Positions 13,735 through 32,120 of a DNA stretch of 64,000 nt are shown in pieces. Position 1 is the stretch's first letter. Each line of letters opens with the position of its first letter. Source of the stretch: an uncultured Candidatus Rokubacteria bacterium (GTDB lineage: Bacteria; Methylomirabilota; Methylomirabilia; Rokubacteriales; DASRDR01); the NCBI GenBank assembly GCA_963805625.1, contig CAWDVE010000013.1, positions 224,001-288,000 on the forward strand, written 5' to 3'. Position numbers and translations under genes: made by a program. The notes below the pieces were generated by a model. It was not told where the DNA came from, ran no database searches, and worked only from the letters and a program-made list of their open reading frames with translations.

Positions 13735-15948
13735 TCAGTCCTCGTCGGCCGCCGCGCGCGCGACGGCGCCGCGATATTGGCGGAAGTGCCGCCACGCCTG
13801 ACGGAGACCCCCGACCCCGGGCCCCGGCAAGCCGGTGCGGCCCGGCTTTCGGCCCGGGCGAACCATGGCCCAGCGGCACACCGCGCCGAGATAGCGGGCG
13901 CGGGCGCCGAGTGAGTCGTGCAGGAGGAACAGCACCGCATTCCGGCTGATCGGGTCGAGCTCGTCCACCCGCTCGGCGGCGCGGAACAGGCGGCGCCCCG
14001 CCACCGTCTCGAGGTCCCGCTCGAGCCCGTCCCGCGGCGCACTGCGCAGGAAGTCCGGCGGCATCGGCAGCCCCAGCTCGCGGGACAACACCGCCGCCGG
14101 CACCCAGAATCCCCGCGGCGCCCGCATGGCGACCACCCACCGTGCCAGCCGCTCCCAGTCGAGGTCGGGGCAGCTCCGGAGGATCGCCAGGATGTCCCAG
14201 CCGGCACGGAGTCCGTGCGAGAAGCAGTGCTGCGCGCAGTGGACCACCGAGTGCAGAAGCAGGCCCTCCGGATCGAGCGTGTCGATCTCCTCGGCCGACG
14301 CCAGGGGGCGAGCGCGTCCCAGCATCTCCCCTTCTGGCAGCCCCCAGTGAGGCGCGGAGATCCGGGTGTGGATCTCCACCAGGATGCCCTGGACCGTCAC
14401 CGGGGCGAGGTGGTGCGTCGACGTCGGCCGGGCGTCGGGAACGCCGCGAAATCCGAGCTCGAGCAGCCGCCGGCGGAGGGCCGGCCCGCGGTCGGGGCCG
14501 ACGTAGAGGTCGATGTCACCGGTGGCGCGAGGCGGAACCGGGGTCCCTTCCTCGCGAGCCCGGAGGGTCAGCGCCATCCCCTTCAGCAGGACACCCCGCG
14601 CGCCGATCGAGCGGAGGCCGGCCTCCAACTGCCGGAGCACGTCCCGCTGCACCAGTTCGCGGATCCCCTCGCGCACCGCCGCTGCCCGCAAGGCCTCCGT
14701 GAAGAAGGCGGGCGCCCAGCGCGCGAGTTCCGCATCGCCCAGCGCGGGCGTGAGCGGCCGGGCCAGCCCGCACGCCGCCAGGTACGACGCCCATCGCTTC
14801 CAGTCGACGTCAGGCCGGGAGAGGATCCGCGCGGGCTCCTCCGTCCACCGCGCCCCGGGCTCCGCCGCGGCCCGGAGGAAGACCCGGGCGGCCCCCGGCC
14901 CGTTGATGTACCCGGCGTTAAGCTCGCCCCGCCGCCGGCTGTCCTGGATCACGAGCCACGCGGCCCGCCGCTCCGCGGCGAGCCCCGGGTCCACGAGCCG
15001 CAGTCTCAGCGCCGCGACCGCGCCCGCGTCGGACGTGATGTGGAGGCACAGGTCACAGATGCCGAGATAGCGCGCCCGGAACGGGAAGTGCTCGAAGCCG
15101 GGGAGCGCCCGCAGCTCGTCTCGCAAGCGGGCCGGCCCCGACGTGCGGATCGTGTCGAGGATCGGGTCCTGACGATGACGCTCCAGCAGGGTCCCGAGCG
15201 TCTCGGTCCGGAGCGAGCCGACGATCAGGGGCGACGATTCCGGCGCGAAGTAGGCCGGCCCGTTGCACGCTGTCAGGCGGCCGTCGTCCGTCACCGCCGG
15301 AATCGCGCACGCGGAGCAGAAGCCGTCCACCGCGCCGCCCATCGTCTCGGTCGGCAGGCCACGCGCCCGGCCGACCGCCTGGAGTCCGTAGAATCGCAGA
15401 CGCGTGCCGCGAAGGCCCTCGAACGGCGCGACCAGCGGGGCGAGCCCGTCCTCCCCTGCCGGCCCGGCCGGCACGACCAGGCTGATCCGGACGGGCAGGC
15501 CCACCTTCTCGGCGGCGCGGGCGATGAGGAGCGCCGGGGTCGGGCCCTGGAACTCGTCGTGGTAGCGGTCGACGCTGACGGCCAGCGAACCGAGGCCAGC
15601 CCTCCGGAGCGCCTGGACGCCGTGCCACGCCCGGGCGGCGGTGCGCCCCCAGGATCCGTTCGTCGTCAGCGACGTGGCGACGCCGAGTTGGCGCGCCGTC
15701 CGGACGAGCCGCAGGATGGTCCGAGGGCGGAGCATCGGCTCCCCGCCCGTCAGGTTGATCGCCCGGACGTCGCCTGCGGCCGCCTCACGGACACGGTCGA
15801 GAAGCTCTCGCTCCGTCGGCTCGTCCCGGAGATCGGGGCTGCTCTCCACGCTGCAGTGGCCGCATCGCATGTTGCAGCGGCGCGTCACCATGAGAGCTAT
15901 CGACGTGGCCGGCGGGAGCGTCTTCACTCGCATGCGGGCCGAGCTCAT
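13735..15948 (-). CDS. Radical SAM domain (with Cys-rich SPASM/Twitch-like extension) fused to a nucleotidyltransferase-family domain
   Basis: CNMRCGHC, TGGEP and TNG, then CSAC...ACNG...CDLC. C-terminal VLLKGMAL...TGDIDLYV...VEIH. ATGA overlap with the upstream kinase gene. Confidence 0.88.
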   Translation of the reverse strand: MSSARMRVKTLPPATSIALMVTRRCNMRCGHCSVESSPDLRDEPTERELLDRVREAAAGDVRAINLTGGEPMLRPRTILRLVRTARQLGVATSLTTNGSWGRTAARAWHGVQALRRAGLGSLAVSVDRYHDEFQGPTPALLIARAAEKVGLPVRISLVVPAGPAGEDGLAPLVAPFEGLRGTRLRFYGLQAVGRARGLPTETMGGAVDGFCSACAIPAVTDDGRLTACNGPAYFAPESSPLIVGSLRTETLGTLLERHRQDPILDTIRTSGPARLRDELRALPGFEHFPFRARYLGICDLCLHITSDAGAVAALRLRLVDPGLAAERRAAWLVIQDSRRRGELNAGYINGPGAARVFLRAAAEPGARWTEEPARILSRPDVDWKRWASYLAACGLARPLTPALGDAELARWAPAFFTEALRAAAVREGIRELVQRDVLRQLEAGLRSIGARGVLLKGMALTLRAREEGTPVPPRATGDIDLYVGPDRGPALRRRLLELGFRGVPDARPTSTHHLAPVTVQGILVEIHTRISAPHWGLPEGEMLGRARPLASAEEIDTLDPEGLLLHSVVHCAQHCFSHGLRAGWDILAILRSCPDLDWERLARWVVAMRAPRGFWVPAAVLSRELGLPMPPDFLRSAPRDGLERDLETVAGRRLFRAAERVDELDPISRNAVLFLLHDSLGARARYLGAVCRWAMVRPGRKPGRTGLPGPGVGGLRQAWRHFRQYRGAVARAAADED

Positions 15949-16826
15949 GCCGGGGCGCGAGATCCCACGAGCGCCTCGACGGCCTCGGCCATCCGGGGAA
16001 GCGGTCCGCGACCGAGATCGAAGGCCGGGACGCGGTCGGCGAGGGGCGCGAGGATCCGGATGGCGTCCCCGAGCGTCCGGCGGGACCGCTGGTTCGTGTA
16101 GGGGACGAGCGCCAGCAGGGCATGCGCGGGAGCGATCTGCTGGGGGCGCGCAGGCTCGGCGACGCCACCGCGCCGGGAGAGAAACACGATGGCGGCGAGC
16201 CGCACCGCCGTGGATCGCAGGCACGGCTCGATCTCGTCGGGATGAAACAGTTGCGAGTCGGCGAGCGCGACACTGGACGGGCCGCGCATGACTCGCTCGA
16301 AGAGGTCGTCGCCCAGGAGCGCGCGGCTCGTCGACCTGAGGGACACGCGTCGCGGAGCCGGCCGTGCCTCGGCCGCCGCCGGCTCCACCATGGCAACGTC
16401 ATCGCCGAGCAACGCGGCGCCGCGCGCCCACAGCGCGCAGGCGAGCGTCGACTTGCCAGCCTCGCCACGCCCGGCGAGCAGAATTCCCCGGCCGTTCCAT
16501 GCAACCAGGGCACCGTGCGCGATCACGACGGGCGACTCCACGATCGCCGCGACCGCTCCGTACTCCACGGCGCTGACGGCTCGGGCAGCGCTCGGCACGC
16601 GCAGATCAGCGCCCGCCGAGGACCGGACCCACCACTCCAAGTCTGCCCCGTTGTCATTCAGGCGGTCGACCCGCCAGGCACGGCTCGGCTCACCCTCTTC
16701 GTGGGTCGCCCAGGGGCGGAACACGGTCGCCGCCAGGGTCCGGACGGCGGGGTCGTCGGACGTGAGCTCGAAGCGCAGGGGTCCCGCCGTCCAGCGAATG
16801 GGCGGGCCAGCAGACGCCTGGGTCAC
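15945..16826 (-). CDS. HPr kinase-related P-loop kinase
   Basis: HGALV, Walker A GRGEAGKST and LLGDD motifs of the HprK-related family. Confidence 0.85.
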   Translation of the reverse strand: MTQASAGPPIRWTAGPLRFELTSDDPAVRTLAATVFRPWATHEEGEPSRAWRVDRLNDNGADLEWWVRSSAGADLRVPSAARAVSAVEYGAVAAIVESPVVIAHGALVAWNGRGILLAGRGEAGKSTLACALWARGAALLGDDVAMVEPAAAEARPAPRRVSLRSTSRALLGDDLFERVMRGPSSVALADSQLFHPDEIEPCLRSTAVRLAAIVFLSRRGGVAEPARPQQIAPAHALLALVPYTNQRSRRTLGDAIRILAPLADRVPAFDLGRGPLPRMAEAVEALVGSRAPA

Positions 16827-17110
16827 GAGACCGGCACGATCGCCCCGTGCCGGATCAGCTCGTCGAGGAACGACGAGACGTCTCGGACAGCGGCCTCCGG
16901 GGCCAGCGCCGGGAACCGCTCCCGCAGGGCAGCCGTGAGGTCCTCTGGGCGAGCGGGAGTGGCGAGCCGCTCCCAGAGCCGGCTGCCAGTGGGGTTCAGT
17001 ACGAGGGCACTACGGGACGTCCGGTGATAGAGCACCACCCGATCGCCGACGGGGGAAACCTCGACCTGCTCGGATCGCGCGTAGGCGGGATCCACGGCCT
17101 CGCTCACCAC
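16823..17110 (-). CDS. PqqD-family RiPP recognition element (RRE)
   Basis: 95 aa with LVLNPTGSRLWERL...DVSSFLDELIRHGAI, the PqqD pattern. GTGA overlap with the kinase. Confidence 0.88.
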   Translation of the reverse strand: MVSEAVDPAYARSEQVEVSPVGDRVVLYHRTSRSALVLNPTGSRLWERLATPARPEDLTAALRERFPALAPEAAVRDVSSFLDELIRHGAIVPVS

Positions 17111-20425: not shown

Positions 20426-21958
20426 CTAGACGGGGTAGACGCCGTTCCGGCGCGGCGGGAAGCGGTGCCGCTTGGTGCCCGCGTAGCCGAGGCGCTTGGT
20501 CAGCTCGCCGCGAAGCTCCGACGGCGGGACCACGGCGTCGACGAGCATCTCCGAGGCGAGCCGGAAGACGTCGATGTCCTTCTGGAACTCCTCGCGCCGC
20601 TCGCGCACGAACGCGGCACGCGCCTCACCCTCGAGCTCCATGATGCGATTGTAGTAGACGGCGTTGATCGCGGGCTCGGGTCCCATGATCGCGATCTGGG
20701 CCTGGGGCAGCGCCAGCACCGCATCCGGTTCGAACGCCTGGCCGCACATCGCGTAGAGGCCGGCCCCATAGCATTTCCGGACGACGACCAAGATCTTGGG
20801 AACGGTCGACTGCGACGTCGCGAAAATCATCTTGGCGCCGTGCCGGATGATCCCCGCCCGTTCGACCTTCGAGCCGACCATGAATCCCGAGACGTCCGCG
20901 AGGTATACGAGGGGAACGTTGTACGCATTGCAGAGCCAGATGAATCGCGCCGCCTTGTCCGCGGAGTCGACGAAGAGGACCCCGCCCTTGACCTTCGGCT
21001 GGTTCGCGACGATCCCGACCGCCCGTCCCCCGAGCCGCGCGAAACCGGTGATGATCTCCCGAGCAAAGAGCGCCTTCACCTCGAGCCACGAGCCCGCGTC
21101 CACGAGCCCGCGGATCACCTCGTGCATGTCGAAGTACTTCCGCTGATCGTAGGGCACGATCTCGTCGATCGGGCGGCTCGGCTCTGGATCGGCCGGCGCG
21201 ACGTCCGACACCCGGTCGCGGTGACTCTGGGGCATATAGCCGAGATACCGCCGGGCCACGGCGATGGCCTCCTCGTCGGAACCCGCCAGGACGTCCCCGC
21301 ACCCCGACTCCTCGCAGTGCATCCGCGCACCGCCGAGCGCCTCGTGATCGATCTTCTCACCGATGGCCATCTCGACCATGCGGGGTGAGCCCACGTACAT
21401 CGACGCCTTGCCCTCGACCATGATCACGACGTCCGTGAGCGCGGGCAGGTAGGCCGAGCCAGCAGGCGACGGTCCGAAGAGGATGCAGACTTGGGGAACG
21501 ACGCCCGAGAGCTGCACCTCATTGTAGAAGATGCGGCCGGCGTGGTGGCGGCCGGGGAAGATGCGGATCTGCTCGGAGATACGGGCGCCCGCCGCGTCGA
21601 CGAGGTAGATGAGTGGTATCTGGAGGCGCGCCGCCTTCTCCTGGATACGGATGATCTTCTGGACTGTCTTCTCGCCCCAGGAGCCGGCCTTCACCGTGAA
21701 GTCGTTGGCCATGACGCAGACCGGCCGGCCCAGGACCGTGCCCACTCCGGTGACGACGCCGTCGGCGGGCGTCTCGGGCTCGGCGGCGCGGGCGAGGAGC
21801 CAGTCCTCCTGGAACTCGGTGCCGGGGTCGAGGAGGAGGTTGAGGCGGTCGCGGACGAAGAGCTTGCCCTCCGCCCGGAGCTTGTCGCGGTACTTGACGT
21901 GCCCCTGCCGGACGCGCGTGATCTCGTCCCGGAGGCGCCGCTCGCTCACGCCCGGCAT
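20426..21958 (-). CDS. Acyl-CoA carboxylase carboxyltransferase (beta) subunit
   Basis: PADGVVTG, NDFTVKAGSWG, DAAGARI, ANQP, DVSGFMVG, YGAGLYAM. Confidence 0.93.
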   Translation of the reverse strand: MPGVSERRLRDEITRVRQGHVKYRDKLRAEGKLFVRDRLNLLLDPGTEFQEDWLLARAAEPETPADGVVTGVGTVLGRPVCVMANDFTVKAGSWGEKTVQKIIRIQEKAARLQIPLIYLVDAAGARISEQIRIFPGRHHAGRIFYNEVQLSGVVPQVCILFGPSPAGSAYLPALTDVVIMVEGKASMYVGSPRMVEMAIGEKIDHEALGGARMHCEESGCGDVLAGSDEEAIAVARRYLGYMPQSHRDRVSDVAPADPEPSRPIDEIVPYDQRKYFDMHEVIRGLVDAGSWLEVKALFAREIITGFARLGGRAVGIVANQPKVKGGVLFVDSADKAARFIWLCNAYNVPLVYLADVSGFMVGSKVERAGIIRHGAKMIFATSQSTVPKILVVVRKCYGAGLYAMCGQAFEPDAVLALPQAQIAIMGPEPAINAVYYNRIMELEGEARAAFVRERREEFQKDIDVFRLASEMLVDAVVPPSELRGELTKRLGYAGTKRHRFPPRRNGVYPV

Positions 21959-21999: not shown

Positions 22000-23265
22000 C
22001 TACTCTTCGCGGGAGCGGATCGCGATGATCAGGACGCCGGTCAGGTGCGGCAGGCCACCGATCAGAGCCGGGCGCCGGGGCGGGACGTCCATCACGGTCG
22101 CCAGCTCTCCGACCGGCCCGCGCTTGATGCGCACCAGGATCCGGACGATCGGCCGCCTGATGCCGAGCGGCTGGATCTCCATCTCGCGCCCGCCGGGGAG
22201 CGCGAAGCGCTGCAGCATGCCGACGGGCATCCGCGTCTCGAAGGCGCTCACGGGCTCATAGTGGGAGTACTGAAACACCTCCCGGAGCCGCGGCACCCAG
22301 AGCTGGAGACGGACCGGCTGGCCGCACCCGCTCTGAAGCTCCGCGGGAGGTCCCGTCCCCGGCGACGGAGCGGGGTTCGCGACGTCGGGTGTGGGCGGGA
22401 GCCCGGCCTGGGGCGCGCTACCGGGAGGGCCGCCAGGAGGACCGATCGGCGGCCCCCCCGGCCGCGCGATCCCCGCGGGCGGATTCGATGCGAACATCAC
22501 GAGCGCGTACACGCAAACCTGCTGGGCGGGCGGTCCACCCGGAGCCGCCGTCGGCGGCGGAAGGACCCCCGGTGGCGGCAGCGGGGGAAGCTGGGCACGA
22601 GCGGGCCCGACCGCGACGAGAAGCCCCACGAGGGCTGCGACGAAGAGAGCGAAGCCCGGACCGAGAACCTCGCGAAGACGCTTCCTCGCGTGGTGCAGGC
22701 GGGACATCACGGTCCCCATGGGAATGCCGAGCACCTCCGCGATCTCCCGGTACTGGAGCCCTTCGATGTCGCTGAGGATGATAATGGCTCGGTGGTGCTC
22801 TGACAAGGAATCGAGTCCTTTTCGGATTCGCTCACGGGTCTCCACACCGGTTGCAACGTCCTCAGGATCGGGATCGGTCGACGTCGCCGTGCGCTCCCAC
22901 TCCTCCGGGGGGACGTCCTCGGCGCCGAGCGATTTTGCCCGGGTGGCCCGCTGGCGTTTCCGGTCGAGTGCAACGTTCATCGTGATGCGGAAGAGCCAGG
23001 TGTAGAACGCCGAGTCCCCCTTGAAGGCCGGCAGGGCGCGGAAGGCCTTGACGAAGGCCTCCTGGGCGACATCGAGCGCCTCCTCCTGATCCCGGAGCAC
23101 CTGGTATGCCAACCGGAACACCTTGCGCTTGTACTTCTCGACCAGGGGCTCGAACGCCTCCGTGTCGCCGGCCTGGACCCGCCGGACCGCCTCGCGGTCG
23201 TCTTCGCTCACAAGGCCGACCCGGCGGGGCGCCGGGCCGGAAGGCGTCCCGCCGCCCACCGCCAT
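22000..23265 (-). CDS. ECF sigma factor with C-terminal TM/signal-like helix and Pro-rich extracytoplasmic domain (start may be GTG 23211)
   Basis: Region 2 DVAQEAF...FYTWLFRI, region 4 YREIAEVLGIPMGTVMSRLHHAR, then FALFVAALVGLLVAVGPARA-Q in the same frame. Confidence 0.88.
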   Translation of the reverse strand: MAVGGGTPSGPAPRRVGLVSEDDREAVRRVQAGDTEAFEPLVEKYKRKVFRLAYQVLRDQEEALDVAQEAFVKAFRALPAFKGDSAFYTWLFRITMNVALDRKRQRATRAKSLGAEDVPPEEWERTATSTDPDPEDVATGVETRERIRKGLDSLSEHHRAIIILSDIEGLQYREIAEVLGIPMGTVMSRLHHARKRLREVLGPGFALFVAALVGLLVAVGPARAQLPPLPPPGVLPPPTAAPGGPPAQQVCVYALVMFASNPPAGIARPGGPPIGPPGGPPGSAPQAGLPPTPDVANPAPSPGTGPPAELQSGCGQPVRLQLWVPRLREVFQYSHYEPVSAFETRMPVGMLQRFALPGGREMEIQPLGIRRPIVRILVRIKRGPVGELATVMDVPPRRPALIGGLPHLTGVLIIAIRSREE

Positions 23266-23315
23266 CGAGTCCAGACGCCGGTCACCTTCTCAGACTCCTC
23301 GGGCCGGTCGCGCAT

Positions 23316-23759
23316 TCAGCGCCGAGCGACGCAGGCGAGGGCCGCATCCAGCCCCAGGGTGTAGCTGTGGACCCCGAAACCGGCGATCTGGCCCCGGCAA
23401 GCCCCGGCGGTGACGGAGCGGTGACGAAAGGGCTCTCGCCCGTGGACGTTGGAAAGGTGAACCTCCACGGCAGGCAGCGTCACCGCGGCGAGGGCATCCC
23501 GGATCGCATAGGAGTAGTGCGTGAGTGCGCCCGGATTAATCACGATCGCCGCAAAGCCCTGGTCCGCAGCGCCCTGGATCGCGTCGATCAGCACGCCCTC
23601 GTGATTCGACTGCCGGCACTCCACCCGGACGCCGCGCGACGCCGCGTGGGTCGCGATCGCCGCGTCGACCTCGGCCAGGGTCGTCGTCCCGTACACGCCT
23701 GGCTCGCGCTGGCCGAGCAGGTTCAGGTTCGGGCCGTGGAGCACCAGGATCGCCGTCAT
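23316..23759 (-). CDS. aroQ: Type II 3-dehydroquinate dehydratase
   Basis: [40 protein letters not shown]. Confidence 0.97.
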
Positions 23760-24714: not shown

Positions 24715-24851
24715 GCCGGCGACCCTTGGACGCTATCATTGCAAAGACGTTGCAATACAGGCTGTTGGGCTGTCAAGGGAAACATTCCTTGCCGCCCCGT
24801 CCTCAGATCCGGTAAGGTACCGAATTGCCGAAGCGAATTCGGCTCAACCTC

Positions 24852-26558
24852 ATGATCTCCGGCCATTCCCCGTCGTTCGGACGATGGCTGACCGGGACAG
24901 GCCTCCTCTCGGACGCAGAGCTGGCGCGGGCCGAGGCACACCGTCAGTCCACCGGCGAGCATCTGTCCGATGCTCTGGTCCGGCTCGGGCTCTCGAGCGC
25001 GGAGGAGGTGGGCCAAGCCCTGGCCCGTCACCTCGAGATCGCCTACGTCGGGCGTGAAGAGTTCCCCTCGAGCCCGCCATTCCTCCAGCGGCTGTCGCCC
25101 CAGTACATGCGCCAGTACCGCTTCTGCCCCCTCGCCGTCGAGGACGGCGTCCTCGTGGTGGCGTGTGCCGATCCAACCGACCCGACGGTCGTCGACGAGC
25201 TCCGCGGAACGCTGGGAATCGACATCCGCCTGGCCGTGGCGACCGAGACCTCGATCCTCGAGGCGATCGAGCGGTACTTCGGTGCCGGCTCGACGGCGGT
25301 CCAGAAGGTCATCGAGACGATTGGCGACGACGAGCGAGCGGACGAGGTGGGCAGTGAGGATGTCACCTCCCTCCGAGACATGGCATTCGACGCGCCGGTG
25401 GTCCGTCTGGTCAACCTCCTCATCGAGAACGCGATCAAGGCGAACGCCTCCGACGTGCACATCGAGCCGTTCGAGGACAGCCTCCGGGTCCGCTACCGGA
25501 TCGACGGCGTGCTCTTCGACGCCGAGACCCCGCCCAAGCGTCTCCGGGCTGCGATCACCTCGCGGATCAAGATCATGGCGGAGCTGAACATCGCCGAACG
25601 CCGGCTGCCACAGGACGGGCGTATCCGCATGGGCCTGGAGGGACGCCGGCTCGACATCCGCGTTTCGACCATCCCAACCCTCCACGGCGAGAGCGTCGTG
25701 ATGCGCATCCTGGACAGGGCGGCGATCCTCCTCCCCCTCGACCGTCTCGGCTTCGACGACCGCGCCCGCCGGGCGATCGAGCACGTCATCGAGCTTCCGC
25801 ACGGCATGCTGCTGGTCACGGGCCCGACGGGCTCCGGGAAGACCACCACCCTCTATGGCGCGCTCCATAAGATCAACTCACCAGATAAGAAGATCATCAC
25901 CATCGAGGATCCGGTCGAGTACCAGCTCCAGGGCATCAACCAGATCCACGTGAAGCCCAAGATCGGATTGACGTTCGCCGCCGGCCTCAGGCACATCGTC
26001 CGCCAAGACCCCGACGTGATCATGGTCGGGGAGATCCGCGACCTCGAGACGGCCGATATCTCTATCCACGCCGCGCTGACGGGGCACCTGGTCTTTTCGA
26101 CGCTCCACACCAACGACGCGCCCGGCGCACTGACCCGGCTTCTCGACATGGGCGTGGAGCCGTACCTCGTGGCCTCGGTCCTGGAGGGCGTCCTGGCCCA
26201 GCGCCTCGTCCGCCGGGTGTGTGCGGGCTGCCGCAAGCCCTACGAGCCCGACGCGGGCGAGCTCCGGGCGCTGGGCATTGACCGTGTCCCCGCGGGCGCG
26301 CGGCTGTCGCGCGGGACCGGCTGCGGGGATTGTCGCGGCACGGGCTACCGGGGTCGCACCGGGATCTACGAGTTCATGGGGATGAACGAGGAACTCCGCG
26401 GCCTAGCTCTCCGAAAGACCCCGGCACACGAGATCCGCCAGTGGGCGGTCGCTGCCGGCATGACGACGCTCCGTCAGGACGGCTGGCACAAGTGCCGCCT
26501 CGGCGTGACGACCGTGGAGGAGGTCCTCCGCGTGACCCACCAGGACTGGGAGGCGTAG
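24852..26558 (+). CDS. gspE: Type II secretion ATPase
   Basis: ASDVHIEP, ERRLPQDGR, GPTGSGKTTT, RQDPDVIMVGEIRD, tetracysteine motif. Confidence 0.95.
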   Translation: MISGHSPSFGRWLTGTGLLSDAELARAEAHRQSTGEHLSDALVRLGLSSAEEVGQALARHLEIAYVGREEFPSSPPFLQRLSPQYMRQYRFCPLAVEDGVLVVACADPTDPTVVDELRGTLGIDIRLAVATETSILEAIERYFGAGSTAVQKVIETIGDDERADEVGSEDVTSLRDMAFDAPVVRLVNLLIENAIKANASDVHIEPFEDSLRVRYRIDGVLFDAETPPKRLRAAITSRIKIMAELNIAERRLPQDGRIRMGLEGRRLDIRVSTIPTLHGESVVMRILDRAAILLPLDRLGFDDRARRAIEHVIELPHGMLLVTGPTGSGKTTTLYGALHKINSPDKKIITIEDPVEYQLQGINQIHVKPKIGLTFAAGLRHIVRQDPDVIMVGEIRDLETADISIHAALTGHLVFSTLHTNDAPGALTRLLDMGVEPYLVASVLEGVLAQRLVRRVCAGCRKPYEPDAGELRALGIDRVPAGARLSRGTGCGDCRGTGYRGRTGIYEFMGMNEELRGLALRKTPAHEIRQWAVAAGMTTLRQDGWHKCRLGVTTVEEVLRVTHQDWEA

Positions 26559-27772
26559 TGCCAACCTTCGCCTATCGTGCCGCCGACCGGACCGGGCGGA
26601 CCGTCGACGGCATGATGGAGGCCTACGACGCCAACGCGGTCGTCGAGCGCCTCCACCGGGAGCACTATTACCCGCTCCGGGTCGAGGCGACGGCCGAGCA
26701 AGGCCGGCCTGGCTGGCGCCTGCTCGGCGCGCCGCGCGTACCCTCGCGCGACGTCCTCGACTTCACGCAGCAGCTCGCCACCCTGGTGGAGGCGGGCCTG
26801 CCACTCGAGCGGGCCCTGGTCGTGCTCAGCGAGGTGTCCGCCAGCCGGCGGCTCCGGCAGATCGTGCAGGACGTGACGCAGAGCGTCCGGTCGGGATCGA
26901 CGCTCGCCGACGCGCTGGCCCACCACCAGCCACGCCCGTTCTCGCGTCTGTATGTGAATACCGTCCGTGCCGGCGAGCGCGGCGGCGTCCTCGAGATCGC
27001 CCTCCGCCGGCTCGCCGAGCACCTAGAGGGAGCCCGAGAGCTCCGCGAGGCGGTCGTCTCGGCCCTGATCTACCCGGCGCTCCTCCTCGTCGTGGGCACG
27101 GCCGCGGTCATCTTCCTGCTGACCTTCGTCCTGCCGCGCTTCGCGGTCATCCTGGCGGACCTCGGCCAGACGCTCCCTCTGCCCACGCGCCTCGTGATGG
27201 GGGTCAGCGAGGTGTTCGTGACGTACTGGTGGGCGGTCGCGGCGGTGGTGATCGCGGTCGCTGGCTTCTGGCAGGCCATGGCCCGGTCTGAGGCGGGCCG
27301 GCTCCAGCTGGACACGGGGCTTCTCGCGCTCCCGGGCGCGGGCGCGGTGCTGCGAAAGATCGAGGTGGGGCGCGCCATCCGCACGCTCGGCACTCTGCTC
27401 TCGTCCGGAGTGCCCCTGCTCGGCGCGCTCGACGTCGCCCGGGAGGGCGCCGGGAACCGCGTGATCTCGAACGCTCTCGTCGCCGTCCACGGAGGCGTCA
27501 AGCGTGGCGAGGGGCTCGCCCGGCCGATGGCCGAGACGGGCGTCTTCCCGTCCCTGGTCGTCCACATGGTGCGAGTGGGCGAGGAAACCGGTCGGCTCGA
27601 CGACATGCTCGGGCGGGTCGCCGGCACCTACGAGCGCGAGGTTCGCGTCGCGGTCCGCCGGCTGGTGGCGACGCTCGAGCCCGCCATCATCGTCGTGCTG
27701 GGCGCCGTGGTGCTGACGATCGTGCTCGCGATCCTCCTAGCGATCCTGAGCGTGAACGAGCTGCCTCTGTGA
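26558..27772 (+). CDS. gspF: Type II secretion inner-membrane platform protein
   Basis: FTQQLATLVEAGLPL, AGERGG, ALIYP, VGEETGRL, LEP. Confidence 0.93.
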   Translation: MPTFAYRAADRTGRTVDGMMEAYDANAVVERLHREHYYPLRVEATAEQGRPGWRLLGAPRVPSRDVLDFTQQLATLVEAGLPLERALVVLSEVSASRRLRQIVQDVTQSVRSGSTLADALAHHQPRPFSRLYVNTVRAGERGGVLEIALRRLAEHLEGARELREAVVSALIYPALLLVVGTAAVIFLLTFVLPRFAVILADLGQTLPLPTRLVMGVSEVFVTYWWAVAAVVIAVAGFWQAMARSEAGRLQLDTGLLALPGAGAVLRKIEVGRAIRTLGTLLSSGVPLLGALDVAREGAGNRVISNALVAVHGGVKRGEGLARPMAETGVFPSLVVHMVRVGEETGRLDDMLGRVAGTYEREVRVAVRRLVATLEPAIIVVLGAVVLTIVLAILLAILSVNELPL

Positions 27773-27780
27773 GGTCCCTG

Positions 27781-28275
27781 ATGCCCATTCCGCGAAAACC
27801 CGATCGTCCGCCCTCCACCCCGCCAGGTGGACGCCGCCGCCGGCCGAGCACCCTCGATCAAGCTGGGTTCACGCTCATCGAGCTCCTGATCGTCGTCATC
27901 ATCCTGGGCGTCCTCGCCGGCCTCGTGGGCCCGCGACTGTTCGGGCGGGTGGGCCAGTCACGCCAGGCGGCCGCCCGCGTGCAGATCGAGCTGCTCGGGG
28001 CGGCCCTCGACCAGTTCAAGCTCGACGTCGGGCGCTACCCCTCGAGCCAGGAGGGGCTCCAGGCGCTCCAGCAGAGCCCCGGAAACGCGCCCGGCTGGGA
28101 GGGCCCGTACCTCAAGAAGGAGGTTCCCCGGGACCCGTGGGGGAGCCCGTATCAGTACCGGAGTCCCGGCGAGCACGGTGAGTACGACCTCTCCTCGCTG
28201 GGCTCGGACGGCGCCGAGGGAGGGGACGGCGAGGCCACGGACTTGACGAGCTGGAGTGAGGGCAAGACCCGGTGA
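27781..28275 (+). CDS. gspG: Major pseudopilin
   Basis: GFTLIELL, YPSSQEGLQAL, GPYL...DPWG...SLGSDG. Start is either 27769 or 27781. Confidence 0.95.
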   Translation: MPIPRKPDRPPSTPPGGRRRRPSTLDQAGFTLIELLIVVIILGVLAGLVGPRLFGRVGQSRQAAARVQIELLGAALDQFKLDVGRYPSSQEGLQALQQSPGNAPGWEGPYLKKEVPRDPWGSPYQYRSPGEHGEYDLSSLGSDGAEGGDGEATDLTSWSEGKTR

Positions 28276-28733
28276 GCCCGCACGCTCCGGGACGCGACGC
28301 GAGGGGACTCACCCTCATGGAACTCGTCGTCGTCCTCGCGGTGCTGGCCACCGTGACGGCCTTCGCGCTGCCGTCCATCCGTCGCGGCAGCGAGGGTCTC
28401 CAGCTCCGGGCGGGGGCCGGCCGCGTGGCGTCCCTCCTGCGCGAGGCACGCCAGCAGGCCGTCACGCACCGGCGGCCCACGCGGGTCGCCCTCGAGCCGA
28501 ACCACCGCGGCGCCGCCCTGGCGTGGGACGGAAGCAACGAACCCCTGCGCCGCGTCGAGCTGCCGGATCGGTTCCGTCTGGAGGCATCCGCGGGCAGCGA
28601 GACCCTCACGTTCTCCTCGCGCGGACTGGTCCGCGACGCTCGGTGGGTGGTGGCGGGTCCCGGCGGCCGCCGCCTCGTCGTCGAGGTCCACGGCGTGACC
28701 GGGCGGGTGGCGGTCGCGCCCCCCGCGCCCTGA
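28272..28733 (+). CDS. gspH: Minor pseudopilin H
   Basis: Class III signal RG-LTLMELV; operon position. Confidence 0.85.
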   Translation: MSPHAPGRDARGLTLMELVVVLAVLATVTAFALPSIRRGSEGLQLRAGAGRVASLLREARQQAVTHRRPTRVALEPNHRGAALAWDGSNEPLRRVELPDRFRLEASAGSETLTFSSRGLVRDARWVVAGPGGRRLVVEVHGVTGRVAVAPPAP

Positions 28734-28742
28734 GCCCGTCAC

Positions 28743-29150
28743 ATGAGACCATCGGTCGGCGCCCGCAGGCAGGACAAGGGGTTCACGCTCCTCGAGGTTC
28801 TCGTGGCGCTCTTCGTCCTCGCGACCACGGTCGTGGCGGTCCTCCAGCTCTTCGGGGGCGGGCTCCGGTTAGCCCGGGCCGCTGGCGACCACGCCGATGC
28901 CGCGCTCCTCGCGAGCGCAAAGCTCGCCGACCTCGAACCTGGCCCCCTGGCCGAGGGGTCGACCGAAGGTTCGGACGGCCCGTACCGCTGGACTCGTCGG
29001 GTGACGCTCGACCCGGCGCTCCTTCCCGTCCAGCCCGACACTCCGGAGGCGATGCTCATCCGGCTGGCGCGCGTGAGCGTGGAGGTCCAGTGGGGACAGG
29101 GCCGCCGTTTCGAGCTCGCCACGCTCCGCGTCTGGCGGATCGGCTCGTGA
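28743..29150 (+). CDS. gspI: Minor pseudopilin I
   Basis: KG-FTLLEVL; operon position. Confidence 0.85.
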   Translation: MRPSVGARRQDKGFTLLEVLVALFVLATTVVAVLQLFGGGLRLARAAGDHADAALLASAKLADLEPGPLAEGSTEGSDGPYRWTRRVTLDPALLPVQPDTPEAMLIRLARVSVEVQWGQGRRFELATLRVWRIGS

Positions 29151-29782
29151 GCTGGCGGGCGCTCCGGGCGAGTCTCCGCCCCGACGGCCGGGGCTTCACG
29201 CTCGTCGAGGTCATTCTCGCCGTGTCCATCCTTGCGGTCGTCATCCTCCTGGCCACTGCCGCGCTGCGCGTCGGCCTCCGCGCCTGGGAGGCCGGACAGC
29301 GGCGCGCGAACCTCCAGCAGGAGAGCCGCGCGCTCGTCGAGTTGGTCAGCGAGGCACTTGCAGGCGCATCGGCCTACCGCGGGCGCCTGGGCCAGAACCC
29401 CGAGCGTATCGTGCTCTTCGAGGGGGAGCCGGAGGAAGTGCGCTTCGTGACGAGCGCGCCGCCGCTTACGCTGGACAACCCGGTCGCCCCGTTCCATGCG
29501 GTCGTCCTCGGGCGCAAGGGGCAGGACGCGTTGCGGCTCATCGAACGGCTCGTGCCCTCGGACGAGCCATTCGCGCCCGGGCCCGAGCGCGTCCTGTCCC
29601 GGTCCGTCACCCGCTTCAGCCTCGCCTACCGGGACGAGGCCGGGGCGTGGCAGGAGCGGTGGGACGGCCGCGAGGCGGGCGGGCTGCCGACCGCAGTGCG
29701 GCTCGAGCTCTCGGTAGCCGGCCTCGCCCGGGCGACACCCGCGCTCGTCGTCGCGCTGCCGATGGGAAAGCAGGCCCAGTGA
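29147..29782 (+). CDS. gspJ: Minor pseudopilin J
   Basis: RG-FTLVEVI, C-terminal LPTAVRLEL; GTGA overlap. Confidence 0.85.
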   Translation: MSWRALRASLRPDGRGFTLVEVILAVSILAVVILLATAALRVGLRAWEAGQRRANLQQESRALVELVSEALAGASAYRGRLGQNPERIVLFEGEPEEVRFVTSAPPLTLDNPVAPFHAVVLGRKGQDALRLIERLVPSDEPFAPGPERVLSRSVTRFSLAYRDEAGAWQERWDGREAGGLPTAVRLELSVAGLARATPALVVALPMGKQAQ

Positions 29783-30783
29783 CGCCAGCCTCGCCTCCCA
29801 ACCGGACCCGGAGCGACGCGGGGGTCGCGCTGATCGTGGTGCTCCTCCTTCTCGCGCTGCTCCTCACCATCGTCGCGGAGTTCGCCCAGGCGATGCGCCT
29901 CGAGGCGGTGACGGCGACGAACTTCCGCTCCTCGCTGGCCGAGACGTGGCTCGCCGAAGCGGGCTACCAGCGGGCTCTCGCAGAGATCCTGCCCGATGCC
30001 CTGGCGCACGAGCTCGACCCCGGCGGTGCCCTCCTGTTCCGCCGGGCTCGACTCGGCATCCCCACGATGCCCGAGCGTCTCGATCTCCGAATTGACCCGG
30101 GTCGGTTCTCGTACCGGATCACCGACGAAAGCGCGCGGCTCAACCTCAACCGGGTAACCCGCGAGGTCCTGGACCGCCTCCTCCAGGAAGCCGGCGCCGA
30201 GAAGACCGTGCGCGACGAGATCGTCGACTCGATCCAGGACTGGCGCGACCCGAACGAGGAGCACCGCTTGAACGGGGCGGAGAGCGACTACTACCTCGGC
30301 CTCGCCGTCCCTTACCGGTCCAAGAACGCGGACTTCGACAGCGTGGACGAGCTCCTCCAGGTGCGCGGCGTCACGCAAGCGCTCCTCTACGGCCGCCCCG
30401 AGACCCCTGGGCTGGCGGAGCACCTCACCGTCTTCGGCACGCGCGGCGTCAACGTGAACACGGCGAGCCCTGTCGTGCTGCGGGCCCTGGGCTTTGCGCC
30501 CGCCGAAGTAGAGGCTCTGATCGGACGCCGCCCATATGCCGATCTGACCAGCCTTCCGCCGGGGCTCCGGCGCGGCAATCTGCGGACCAACTCCGACACG
30601 TTCCGTATCGAGGCCTGGGCGGGCGGCCCGGCGCCCGCCGGCCGCGTCCTCACAGCAGTCGTCGAGCGCCAGACCGGAACGGGACAGGTCCAGGCGGTGC
30701 CTCGCGCCTGGCGCTGGTCCGAGGTCTCGCGGCTCGCCACGGCGCCTGTAGAACCCGACCCGGGCGACAAGGTGAGCCGGTGA
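29779..30783 (+). CDS. gspK: Minor pseudopilin K
   Basis: GVALIVVL (no E5), DESARLNLN, IQDWRD, GAESDYY, VNVNTA. Confidence 0.92.
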   Translation: MTPASPPNRTRSDAGVALIVVLLLLALLLTIVAEFAQAMRLEAVTATNFRSSLAETWLAEAGYQRALAEILPDALAHELDPGGALLFRRARLGIPTMPERLDLRIDPGRFSYRITDESARLNLNRVTREVLDRLLQEAGAEKTVRDEIVDSIQDWRDPNEEHRLNGAESDYYLGLAVPYRSKNADFDSVDELLQVRGVTQALLYGRPETPGLAEHLTVFGTRGVNVNTASPVVLRALGFAPAEVEALIGRRPYADLTSLPPGLRRGNLRTNSDTFRIEAWAGGPAPAGRVLTAVVERQTGTGQVQAVPRAWRWSEVSRLATAPVEPDPGDKVSR

Positions 30784-32120
30784 GCGACGTCGTCGGTCTC
30801 GCGCTCCGGGACGGACAGGTCGACGTCGTCGCTCTCCGGGAGAGACTGGGCGCGCGACGGCTCGTCACGGCCTTCAGCGTGCCGGCCGAGGAGGACGCCG
30901 CAGGCTCGATCCGGCGTCAGCTCCTGGAGGCCGGCGTCCGCGCCCGGCGCGCGCAGGTGGGTCTCCCTCGGCGCGCGGTGGTCGCGAAGGCAGTGGAGCT
31001 GCCCGCCGTCCCCGGCGTGGACCTCCGGCAGATGGTGGGGTTCGAGCTGGAGCGCCATCTCCCCTTCCCGCCGGCCGAGGCGCTCTTCGACCTCGAGGTC
31101 CTGGCCCGCGAGGCCGGCCGGCCGCTCCGCGTGCTGCTCGTGGCCGTCGAGCGACGAAGCCAGGAGCGGATCCGCGGGCTCCTCCGGGACGCCGGCCTCG
31201 CGCCCCGGTTGGTGGGCGTCGCCATCCACAGCCTGGCCCGTCTGGTGACGGGCGATCCCGCGCGCGGCCGGATCGTGCTCTGGCTGGAAGCGGCCGACGC
31301 GGAGCTCGCCGTCGTCGTCCACGGGCGGGTCGTCGGGAGCCGCGCCTTCCCTGTGCCGGCCGACCCCGAGGCCCGCGGACGCACGCTGGAGGCCGAGCTC
31401 GGGCGAACGCTGGCGACGCTGCCGGAGAGTGACCGGAGCGAGGTCGTGGAAGTCGTCGTCGGCGGGCTCCCTCCGCCGGCATTCGAGATCGAGAGGCTGC
31501 CGATGCGGGTGGGTATCGACGCCCCACCGGGCTTCGCGGCAATCGAGAGCGCGAGCCTGCCCGCTCTGGCCGTCGCGCTCGAGCGCGCGGGCGGGAAGAC
31601 CCCGGTGGCGAACCTCCTGCCCGAAGAGCTTCGCCCGCGCCCGTTCCCCTGGCCGCTCGCCGCCACGGCCGCGCTGGCCCTCCTCGCCTTCGGGATCGGC
31701 GCCGCGATCCCTGCCGTCACGTTCCTGAAGGAGCGGAGAGCCCTCGCGACGCTCGACGCCCGCATCGCCCGTCTCGCGCCCGAGGTCCAGCGGGCCGAGC
31801 GGCTCGCCGCCGACGTGGAGCGCGCGCGGCGCGAGCGGACGACCCTCCGCGGCTTCGAGGAGCAGGGACTCCATCCCCTGCCGGTGCTCCAGGAGCTCAC
31901 GGACACGCTACCCGGCGACGCGTGGCTGACGAATCTGTCCGTCGACCGCAGCGGGCTCGAGCTGGGCGGCTTCGCGAACGCCGCTTCGCAGCTCATTCCG
32001 CTGCTCGAGGCCTCGCCCAGTCTCGAGCGAGTCGAGTTCACCTCGCCGGTGACGAAGGGTCGGGACCGCGAGCAGTTCCGGCTTCGCGCCACCTGGGAGC
32101 GGAGCGGGGGAGGGCGCTAG
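30780..32120 (+). CDS. gspL: GspL/PilM-PilN-like assembly platform protein
   Basis: Actin-like N-terminal region (FELERHLPF), NLLP, TM helix, coiled coil, PilN-like C-terminus (LPGDAWLT). Confidence 0.8.
   Translation: MSDVVGLALRDGQVDVVALRERLGARRLVTAFSVPAEEDAAGSIRRQLLEAGVRARRAQVGLPRRAVVAKAVELPAVPGVDLRQMVGFELERHLPFPPAEALFDLEVLAREAGRPLRVLLVAVERRSQERIRGLLRDAGLAPRLVGVAIHSLARLVTGDPARGRIVLWLEAADAELAVVVHGRVVGSRAFPVPADPEARGRTLEAELGRTLATLPESDRSEVVEVVVGGLPPPAFEIERLPMRVGIDAPPGFAAIESASLPALAVALERAGGKTPVANLLPEELRPRPFPWPLAATAALALLAFGIGAAIPAVTFLKERRALATLDARIARLAPEVQRAERLAADVERARRERTTLRGFEEQGLHPLPVLQELTDTLPGDAWLTNLSVDRSGLELGGFANAASQLIPLLEASPSLERVEFTSPVTKGRDREQFRLRATWERSGGGR

Follow-up and report, generated by a model that had tools for sequence, protein, structure and literature searches.

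The known ECF sigma factors with a membrane-spanning C-terminal extension carry their own anti-sigma factor in the same polypeptide. IutY from Pseudomonas putida (ECF243) and members of the groups ECF48, ECF52 and ECF53 are sigma/anti-sigma fusions of this kind (PMC8999054). Like the protein described here, they consist of an ECF sigma factor, a C-terminal membrane helix and an outer domain; they are freed by site-1 and then RseP cleavage, and their extension is an anti-sigma factor, with a zinc-finger domain in ECF48, ECF52 and ECF53 (PMC8999054). C-terminal extensions of ECF sigma factors usually accompany the lack of an anti-sigma factor (PMC7826278). Cleavage by signal peptidase followed by site-2 proteolysis is, in turn, known for anti-sigma factors (PMC6066255; PMC9044953; PMC10202637). 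In the SigV-RsiV and SigP-RsiP systems, in which RasP serves as the site-2 protease, the anti-sigma substrate has its N-terminus in the cytoplasm (PMC6066255; PMC9044953). In RsiV, a conserved amphipathic helix behind the site prevents the cut as long as lysozyme is not bound (PMC6066255). Remnant signal peptides are cleared by site-2 proteases (PMC9044953).

The fused sigma factor of the Rokubacteriales described here differs from these systems in several respects. In contrast to IutY, ECF48/52/53 and ECF270s2, its extension lacks an anti-sigma domain and corresponds to the third gene of an operon, complete with a type I signal peptide, while the anti-sigma factor is encoded separately at a relocated position. 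The protease order that we propose is that of the RsiV and RsiP systems, but the substrate would be the sigma factor itself, and no conserved element such as the RsiV helix lies behind the site. The closest relative in terms of protein families and promoter type is a three-gene operon of sister orders; here, gene 1 is fused to gene 3, and gene 2 is found elsewhere. By layout this operon resembles rpoE-rseA-rseB (ECF02), but its anti-sigma factor is of the ZAS type and not of the RseA type, and its exported protein has no RseB match. The fused sigma factor is likewise not a member of ECF02/RpoE, since it scores 154 bits against TIGR02939 (cut-off 236) and the gene that follows encodes a carboxyl transferase, not an RseA-like protein. 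Some viral polyproteins, among them hepatitis C core-E1, contain an internal signal sequence: they join a cytoplasmic protein to the signal peptide of the next protein and are processed by signal peptidase and then by an intramembrane cut; as a eukaryotic, viral system, this is an analogy of layout only.

At the level of titles and abstracts, in a coverage that excludes most subscription journals, we found no description of a sigma factor joined to an exported passenger via an internal type I signal peptide and accompanied by a relocated anti-sigma factor, and nothing on this fusion among papers on sigma factors of Rokubacteria. The name Rokubacteria was not found in the main text, or in the part of the supplement examined, of Casas-Pastor 2021.

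Results

A fused ECF sigma factor gene between aroQ and a carboxyl transferase gene

The window, the stretch of 64,000 nucleotides of an uncultured Rokubacteria genome analysed here, carries the gene as one open frame (Table 1), and the same two neighbours flank the fusion in most of the loci of the order that were examined. The initial annotation had read from the sequence a succession of regions 2 and 4, a basic stretch, a helix, an AxA-Q site, Pro-rich linkers, two Cys residues and a beta-rich domain; Pfam, the sequence and an AlphaFold model located every one of these elements in a single frame.

Table 1. Features of the fused sigma factor gene and its surroundings (positions in the window; residues of the 421-aa frame).
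Feature	Position	Strand	Basis and remarks
Whole fused ORF	22000..23265	(-)	One open frame of 421 codons; 421 aa from ATG 23265, a start present only in part of the genus; 403 aa from GTG 23211, the conserved start common to relatives
Sigma-70 region 2, residues 41-107	22945..23145	(-)	Pfam Sigma70_r2 PF04542, E 1.3e-18
Sigma-70 region 4, residues 145-197	22675..22833	(-)	Pfam Sigma70_r4_2 PF08281, E 3.4e-16
Basic end of region 4, residues 194-199; would double as signal peptide n-region	22669..22686	(-)	Alignment
Apolar helix, residues 205-219 (15 residues); signal-peptide h-region or membrane anchor	22609..22653	(-)	Sequence; AlphaFold helix; layout as in signal peptides of stand-alone homologues
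c-region: Gly-Pro turn and predicted signal peptidase I site Ala222-x-Ala224/Gln225 (cut between 224 and 225)	22594..22608	(-)	Motif kept in 54/55 distinct fusions
Pro-rich linker 1	22522..22593	(-)	pLDDT under 50; long in this genome's family; in the rest of the order, short or missing
Exported beta-rich domain: first strand, Pro-rich insertion, helix and strands; Cys251/Cys314 pair; unnamed family, weak secretin-like fold	22003..22521	(-)	
Predicted ECF promoter, likely autoregulatory: -35 GAAT 23317-23314, -10 GTCTGA 23295-23290	23290..23317	(-)	Motif upstream of 28/28 fused genes
aroQ (type II dehydroquinase), conserved upstream neighbour	23316..23759	(-)	Pfam; synteny
Carboxyl transferase gene, conserved downstream neighbour	20426..21958	(-)	Pfam; synteny

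The sigma part belongs to the ECF type (group 4): both Pfam regions score above their cut-offs, TIGR02937 gives 115.7 bits (cut-off 42.9), and Pfam found neither region 1.2 nor region 3 in the fused ORF. In the sigma tree, the fused protein falls outside the proteobacterial clade. Its C-terminal extension contains no ZAS or FecR-like domain detectable with Pfam, and no Cys/His motif is present between region 4 and the helix. In the AlphaFold model, the last helix of region 4 is continuous with the apolar helix, with no domain in between; the linkers are disordered and the C-terminal strands reach a pLDDT of about 90. Cys251 and Cys314 occur together, flanking the Pro-rich insertion (window 22315-22521, (-) strand), in 16 of 55 distinct fusions; in the alignment, the pair is confined to the family of this genome, and it may plausibly form a periplasmic disulfide.

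RNA contigs from two studies span the junction between the sigma part and the helix. Two RNA contigs stop at 23272, which is 18 bases past the -10 element. Contigs cannot mark a transcription start, and neither observation is counted as evidence. Apart from the fusion, the window contains at 13735-17110 ((-) strand) what looks like a peptide-modification cassette: a PqqD-like gene, an HPr-kinase-like gene and an 829-aa frame in which a radical SAM enzyme is joined to an NTP_transf_5 nucleotidyltransferase. Elsewhere in this genome, for which contamination is given as 6.26%, archaeal-looking genes recognized by eye (CDC48-like, Sm-like, FBP aldolase/phosphatase-like) occupy approximately positions 105000-118000 of the high-GC bacterial contig C10, possibly a misassembly.

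The fusion is conserved throughout the Rokubacteriales

A profile of the outer domain found matches in 165 of the 183 genomes of the order and in 194 of the 251 genomes of the phylum, and the C-terminal 197 residues have matches in 57 of 61 relative genomes. When loci were fetched, 28 of 30 proved to be intact fusions and two were frameshifted. Of the 150 order matches listed, 141 are located in open frames that measure 337-573 codons (counted by eye; 51 more matches fall outside that list), and seven of nine full-length relatives in a named genome collection are labelled Rokubacteria or Methylomirabilota. Short or low-scoring cases were contig ends, scattered frameshifts, or four unfused three-gene paralogues (genomes G137, G228, G054 and G182). 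The 22 fused sigma factors included in the tree, a chosen subset of rows, form one clade with a support of 100/99; this midpoint-rooted tree leaves open which unfused group is sister to it. The fusion thus has a single origin, and it carries a conserved site that is described below. Three of the four genomes with an unfused paralogue also carry the fusion, and the paralogue of G182 has the same promoter motif as the fused genes.

The fused ORF is real and is not the product of a lost stop codon. Separate genes for the sigma factor and the exported protein in close homologues, which the initial annotation had named as the finding that would point to such a loss, were not found: the close homologues are fused. 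An artefact or a neutral read-through, be it through a lost stop codon or with an internal start from which the exported protein is made separately, is a very improbable explanation. A few assemblies have frameshifts near the junction (e.g., G157 and G001) that, without reads, are indistinguishable from real changes. However, the fusion is conserved across the order and the breaks in the frame are scattered; in none of the short or low-scoring loci fetched do a stop codon and a new start separate a close sigma factor from its domain, and what is absent between the two parts is a whole anti-sigma gene, not merely a stop codon. A conserved internal start was rejected as well, since start-type codons in the junction are shared by at most seven of the 55 fusions at any position.

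Sister orders encode the same proteins in three genes

In the sister orders of the same class, 30 loci from 29 genomes included no fusion, and 27 of them have a separate sigma gene upstream of the domain gene. All 26 loci that were checked also carry a ZAS anti-sigma gene, placed between the genes for the sigma factor and the exported protein where the order was read; this anti-sigma factor spans the membrane with a single helix and has a short beta-tail in the periplasm. The stand-alone exported protein possesses an ordinary N-terminal signal peptide, usually ending in small-x-Ala/Gln just before the first strand. As sister orders encode the sigma factor, the anti-sigma factor and the exported protein as three genes, it was gene 1 and gene 3 that the fusion brought together. 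The fusion retained gene 3's own signal peptide, and the outer domain is the formerly separate exported protein, captured by the sigma factor. The three-gene state is probably older than the fusion because it is more widely spread, a polarity to be read with trees that are midpoint-rooted only.

A homologous anti-sigma gene and a promoter motif shared by two loci

The initial annotation had stated that no anti-sigma gene is adjacent to the fused gene, which is true at the locus itself, where aroQ lies upstream and the carboxyl transferase gene downstream; a homologous anti-sigma gene exists, however, on another contig of this genome. A profile search detected a full-length homologue of the sister-order anti-sigma factors at C16:395376-395945 (+) with an E-value of 8e-31, whereas the other zinc-finger proteins of this genome reach about 1e-6 at best with the same profile. 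It is of the ZAS type (zf-HC2, E 1.3e-8) with one membrane helix, and the motif HxxxCxxC is invariant in 27 aligned rows. At E <= 1e-16, the relocated gene was found in 148 of 183 genomes of the order (by eye), and eight more came from a second search of the remaining 35, giving 156 of 183 with 27 genomes in which it was not found. In 30 of 31 loci, it adjoins cpoB where the tol-pal genes end (tolQRAB-pal-cpoB in this genome) and is read from the opposite strand, and the DNA fetched around these 31 loci contained no sigma match. The relocated anti-sigma factors form one group nested among those of the sister-order operons (SH-aLRT 92 and 88, a moderate support from a quick search with a midpoint root). 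Both the outer domain and the periplasmic tail of the anti-sigma factor are conserved despite the separation of their genes.

We considered and rejected a true loss of the anti-sigma gene in ten genomes without a match: in three, the contig ends in or just after cpoB, and in seven no Pal gene flanked by tolB or cpoB was among the loci fetched. None of the ten combines an intact flank with a missing gene, and the misses that were checked look like assembly gaps. It is also unlikely that the relocated gene is a relic of an unfused paralogue, given that in G054 the fusion and the relocated gene coexist with a complete three-gene paralogue.

All 28 fused genes for which the upstream region was inspected are preceded by GAAT, a spacer of 18 bases (19 in one case) and GTC-[T/C/A]-[A/G/C]-A. 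The -35 element partly overlaps the aroQ stop codon, an overlap present in nine of 14 loci checked. Among 16 sister-order operons, ten match the same pattern, four more have a variant recognized by eye, and one lacks upstream DNA. A matrix derived from 27 sites upstream of sigma genes in other genomes was run over the 7.27 Mb genome; the site in front of the anti-sigma gene (C16:395346) ranked first with 21.5 bits and the site of the sigma gene itself was tied second. At >= 12 bits, the matrix recognizes 30 of 30 upstream regions of anti-sigma genes versus four of 2652 control windows, and none of nine other ECF-like genes checked in this genome has the motif. From the position of the promoter, we infer that the fused sigma factor reads it, and the simplest reading is that it would drive both genes, as it presumably did when they formed a single operon. 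Because of its homology to the operon anti-sigma factors and the shared promoter motif, the relocated protein is the likely partner and inhibitor of the fused sigma factor. Its tol-pal neighbourhood hints, by association, at envelope stress. A wider regulon is not claimed, since most of the top sites beyond the two system genes lie inside or against genes; at >= 16 bits, the scan found 38 sites in the genome where about 22 would be expected. One match of 16.4 bits, at C21:148885 (-), is situated just upstream of a cysS-like gene that follows an ispD-like gene (names assigned by eye).

The predicted signal peptidase I site

The segment behind region 4 has the attributes of a type I signal peptide, with a basic n-region, an apolar h-region, a turn and small residues at -3 and -1, although it occupies an internal position in the protein. 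The initial annotation had made conservation of the AxA site a test of its proposal, and the site is indeed kept: the motif small-x-[AGS]/[QE] occurs in the expected interval of 54 of 55 distinct fusions, compared with 14.6 +/- 3.2 in 2000 shuffles (maximum 25), a motif count on related, non-independent sequences at a site that was itself picked by motif. As a rough control, the same loose motif follows 16 of 51 anti-sigma helices (two rows were anchored wrongly). Among the 55 fusions, position -1 is Ala in 49, Gly in three and Ser in three; position -3 is small or aliphatic, and position -2 takes 15 kinds of residues. A working signal peptidase I site is expected to show this pattern. Furthermore, the position of the site before the first strand is identical in the fusions and the stand-alone homologues. 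Since the sigma factor is joined through the intact secretion signal of the exported protein, it is likely freed by signal peptidase.

This genome encodes a single signal peptidase I, together with a protease of the RseP type that has two PDZ matches. The conserved cleavage motif and the presence of both proteases make a route of signal peptidase cleavage followed by RseP cleavage plausible. An amphipathic shield resembling that of RsiV was not found: in the alignment, the residues behind the site range from none to a long, variable Pro-rich linker, which is disordered in the AlphaFold model. The lack of a conserved element behind the site argues for ungated cleavage.

An exported domain with a weak likeness to secretins

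The outer domain folds confidently (pLDDT 89), and 11 of its 12 best structural matches are secretin cores (GspD, XcpQ, InvG, PilQ) with Z-scores of 6.0-7.8 over approximately 100 aligned residues at an rmsd of 3.9-4.7 A. The best of these (Z 7.8, rmsd 4.0, 100 residues aligned) stays below a Z of 8, where a match may be a mere common arrangement of elements. Foldseek gave no match at E <= 0.001. The Pfam Secretin model remains below its cut-off (12.7 versus 27.5 bits in the first member), with weak matches in three of 21 members and a best E-value of 0.013. The likeness to the secretin core is weak, and the matched chains have several hundred residues, whereas the outer domain is single and comprises about 130. 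A match to sorting nexin 27 from a sequence search of the PDB (E 2.8e-4) was set aside, as it is absent from the listed matches of both fold searches. The window also carries a type II secretion-like run at 24825-32120 (+), in which Pfam identifies gspE and gspG. The run is oriented divergently to the aroQ-sigma genes, and gspE is located near the fusion in four of nine long loci.

The exported protein has no Pfam family and hence no RseB match. Because the outer domain always accompanies an anti-sigma factor with a conserved periplasmic tail, its distribution suggests an RseB-like guard. Beyond the phylum, 700 clusters match at E <= 0.001, and the nearest atlas clusters are unnamed. Among the best 150 of these 700, 13 match the sigma profile; a crude hydropathy test detects a hydrophobic stretch at the N-terminus of 87, a few of which are fragments of fusions.

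Discussion

The data reported here lend themselves to a model that we regard as probable, if only by a modest measure: the fused protein would be a polyprotein that is cut constitutively by signal peptidase I, its stub would be cleared by RseP, and the sigma factor would be controlled by the relocated anti-sigma factor. The apolar helix would insert with the sigma factor inside and the beta-domain outside. Signal peptidase I would then cut behind Ala224 without needing a signal, an activity assumed to be possible after a cytoplasmic domain of 180 residues, and the cut would release a mature protein equivalent to the one exported in sister orders, where it has a gene of its own. The sigma factor would be left on a signal-peptide stub, the usual type of RseP substrate, from which RseP would free it. 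As its homology and the shared promoter suggest, the relocated anti-sigma factor would bind the sigma factor, and its destruction under envelope stress would activate the system. Active sigma factor would in turn direct transcription of its own gene as well as of the anti-sigma gene, so that the feedback loop of the three-gene operon may persist in two places. The weakness of this model is that, if both cuts are constitutive, it leaves the fixation of the fusion unexplained.

A fuller version of this model is, in our judgement, possible but doubtful. Here, the sigma polyprotein would carry its own periplasmic co-regulator, and signal peptidase would yield one exported secretin-like protein per sigma factor; the stub-bound sigma factor would sit beside the relocated anti-sigma factor, whose tail would be guarded by the released domain. 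Activation would then integrate export capacity, loss of the guard and two RseP cuts.

Other arrangements of the same components have to be weighed against constitutive processing. An order-wide retention of both a tether and an anti-sigma factor would find a reason in a mechanism in which signal peptidase I cuts, the anti-sigma-bound sigma factor stays on its stub, and RseP reaches this stub only once the anti-sigma factor has been cut, so that two intramembrane cuts are required. Sigma and anti-sigma factor each have one helix, and the sigma factor enters its helix without a linker in the AlphaFold model, which means that a bound anti-sigma factor would be situated beside the stub. RseP, however, normally clears stubs that lack a large outer domain (PMC10202637; PMC9044953), and we consider this mechanism unlikely. 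Still less probable, in our view, is a tether that is never cut by signal peptidase, with the helix as a permanent anchor and the attached outer domain perhaps holding the short beta-tail of the anti-sigma factor as RseB holds RseA, while another site-1 protease begins the release. The anchored fusion IutY, released by Prc and RseP, sets a precedent (PMC8999054), and the joint conservation of outer domain and anti-sigma tail after the separation of their genes fits such contacts. Yet a relic site should decay, and position -1 is A, G or S in all 55 fusions while -2 varies freely; moreover, the apolar stretch, which a Gly-Pro turn terminates, is just 15 residues long.

The initial annotation had favoured a one-component sensor. 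Such a sensor would bind a ligand through its outer domain, thereby exposing the signal peptidase site, and would involve no anti-sigma factor. Ligand-gated cleavage by signal peptidase is known for RsiV (PMC6066255) and also for RsiP, and the fixation of the fusion in the order would accord with such a device. On the other hand, the residues behind the site are unconserved, the domain is widespread as a free exported protein, and a homologous anti-sigma factor has been kept behind the same promoter motif. We therefore rate a one-component sensor as the least probable of the three alternatives considered in these paragraphs. The sensing part of the earlier proposal is not supported, given a captured exported protein of free-standing origin, the lack of a conserved gate and a ZAS anti-sigma factor retained elsewhere with the same promoter; its proteolytic part, signal peptidase cleavage followed by intramembrane proteolysis, stays plausible and is taken up in the constitutive processing that we prefer.

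Whereas the known membrane-tethered ECF sigma factors are fused to their own anti-sigma factor, the sigma factor studied here bypasses its anti-sigma factor and is joined to an exported passenger, and this fusion with its conserved signal peptidase site is now a fixed feature of a large order of uncultured soil bacteria. The absence of a neighbouring anti-sigma gene can mislead the classification of ECF sigma factors; in this case, a shared promoter motif located the likely partner on another contig. A sigma gene, an anti-sigma gene and two short promoters constitute a system testable in E. coli, and they provide a handle on an unnamed family of exported proteins with approximately 700 clusters. 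If constitutive processing is correct, signal peptidase would process a transcription factor itself, and if the fuller version were true, an envelope-stress sigma factor would be coupled directly to the Sec/signal peptidase pathway.
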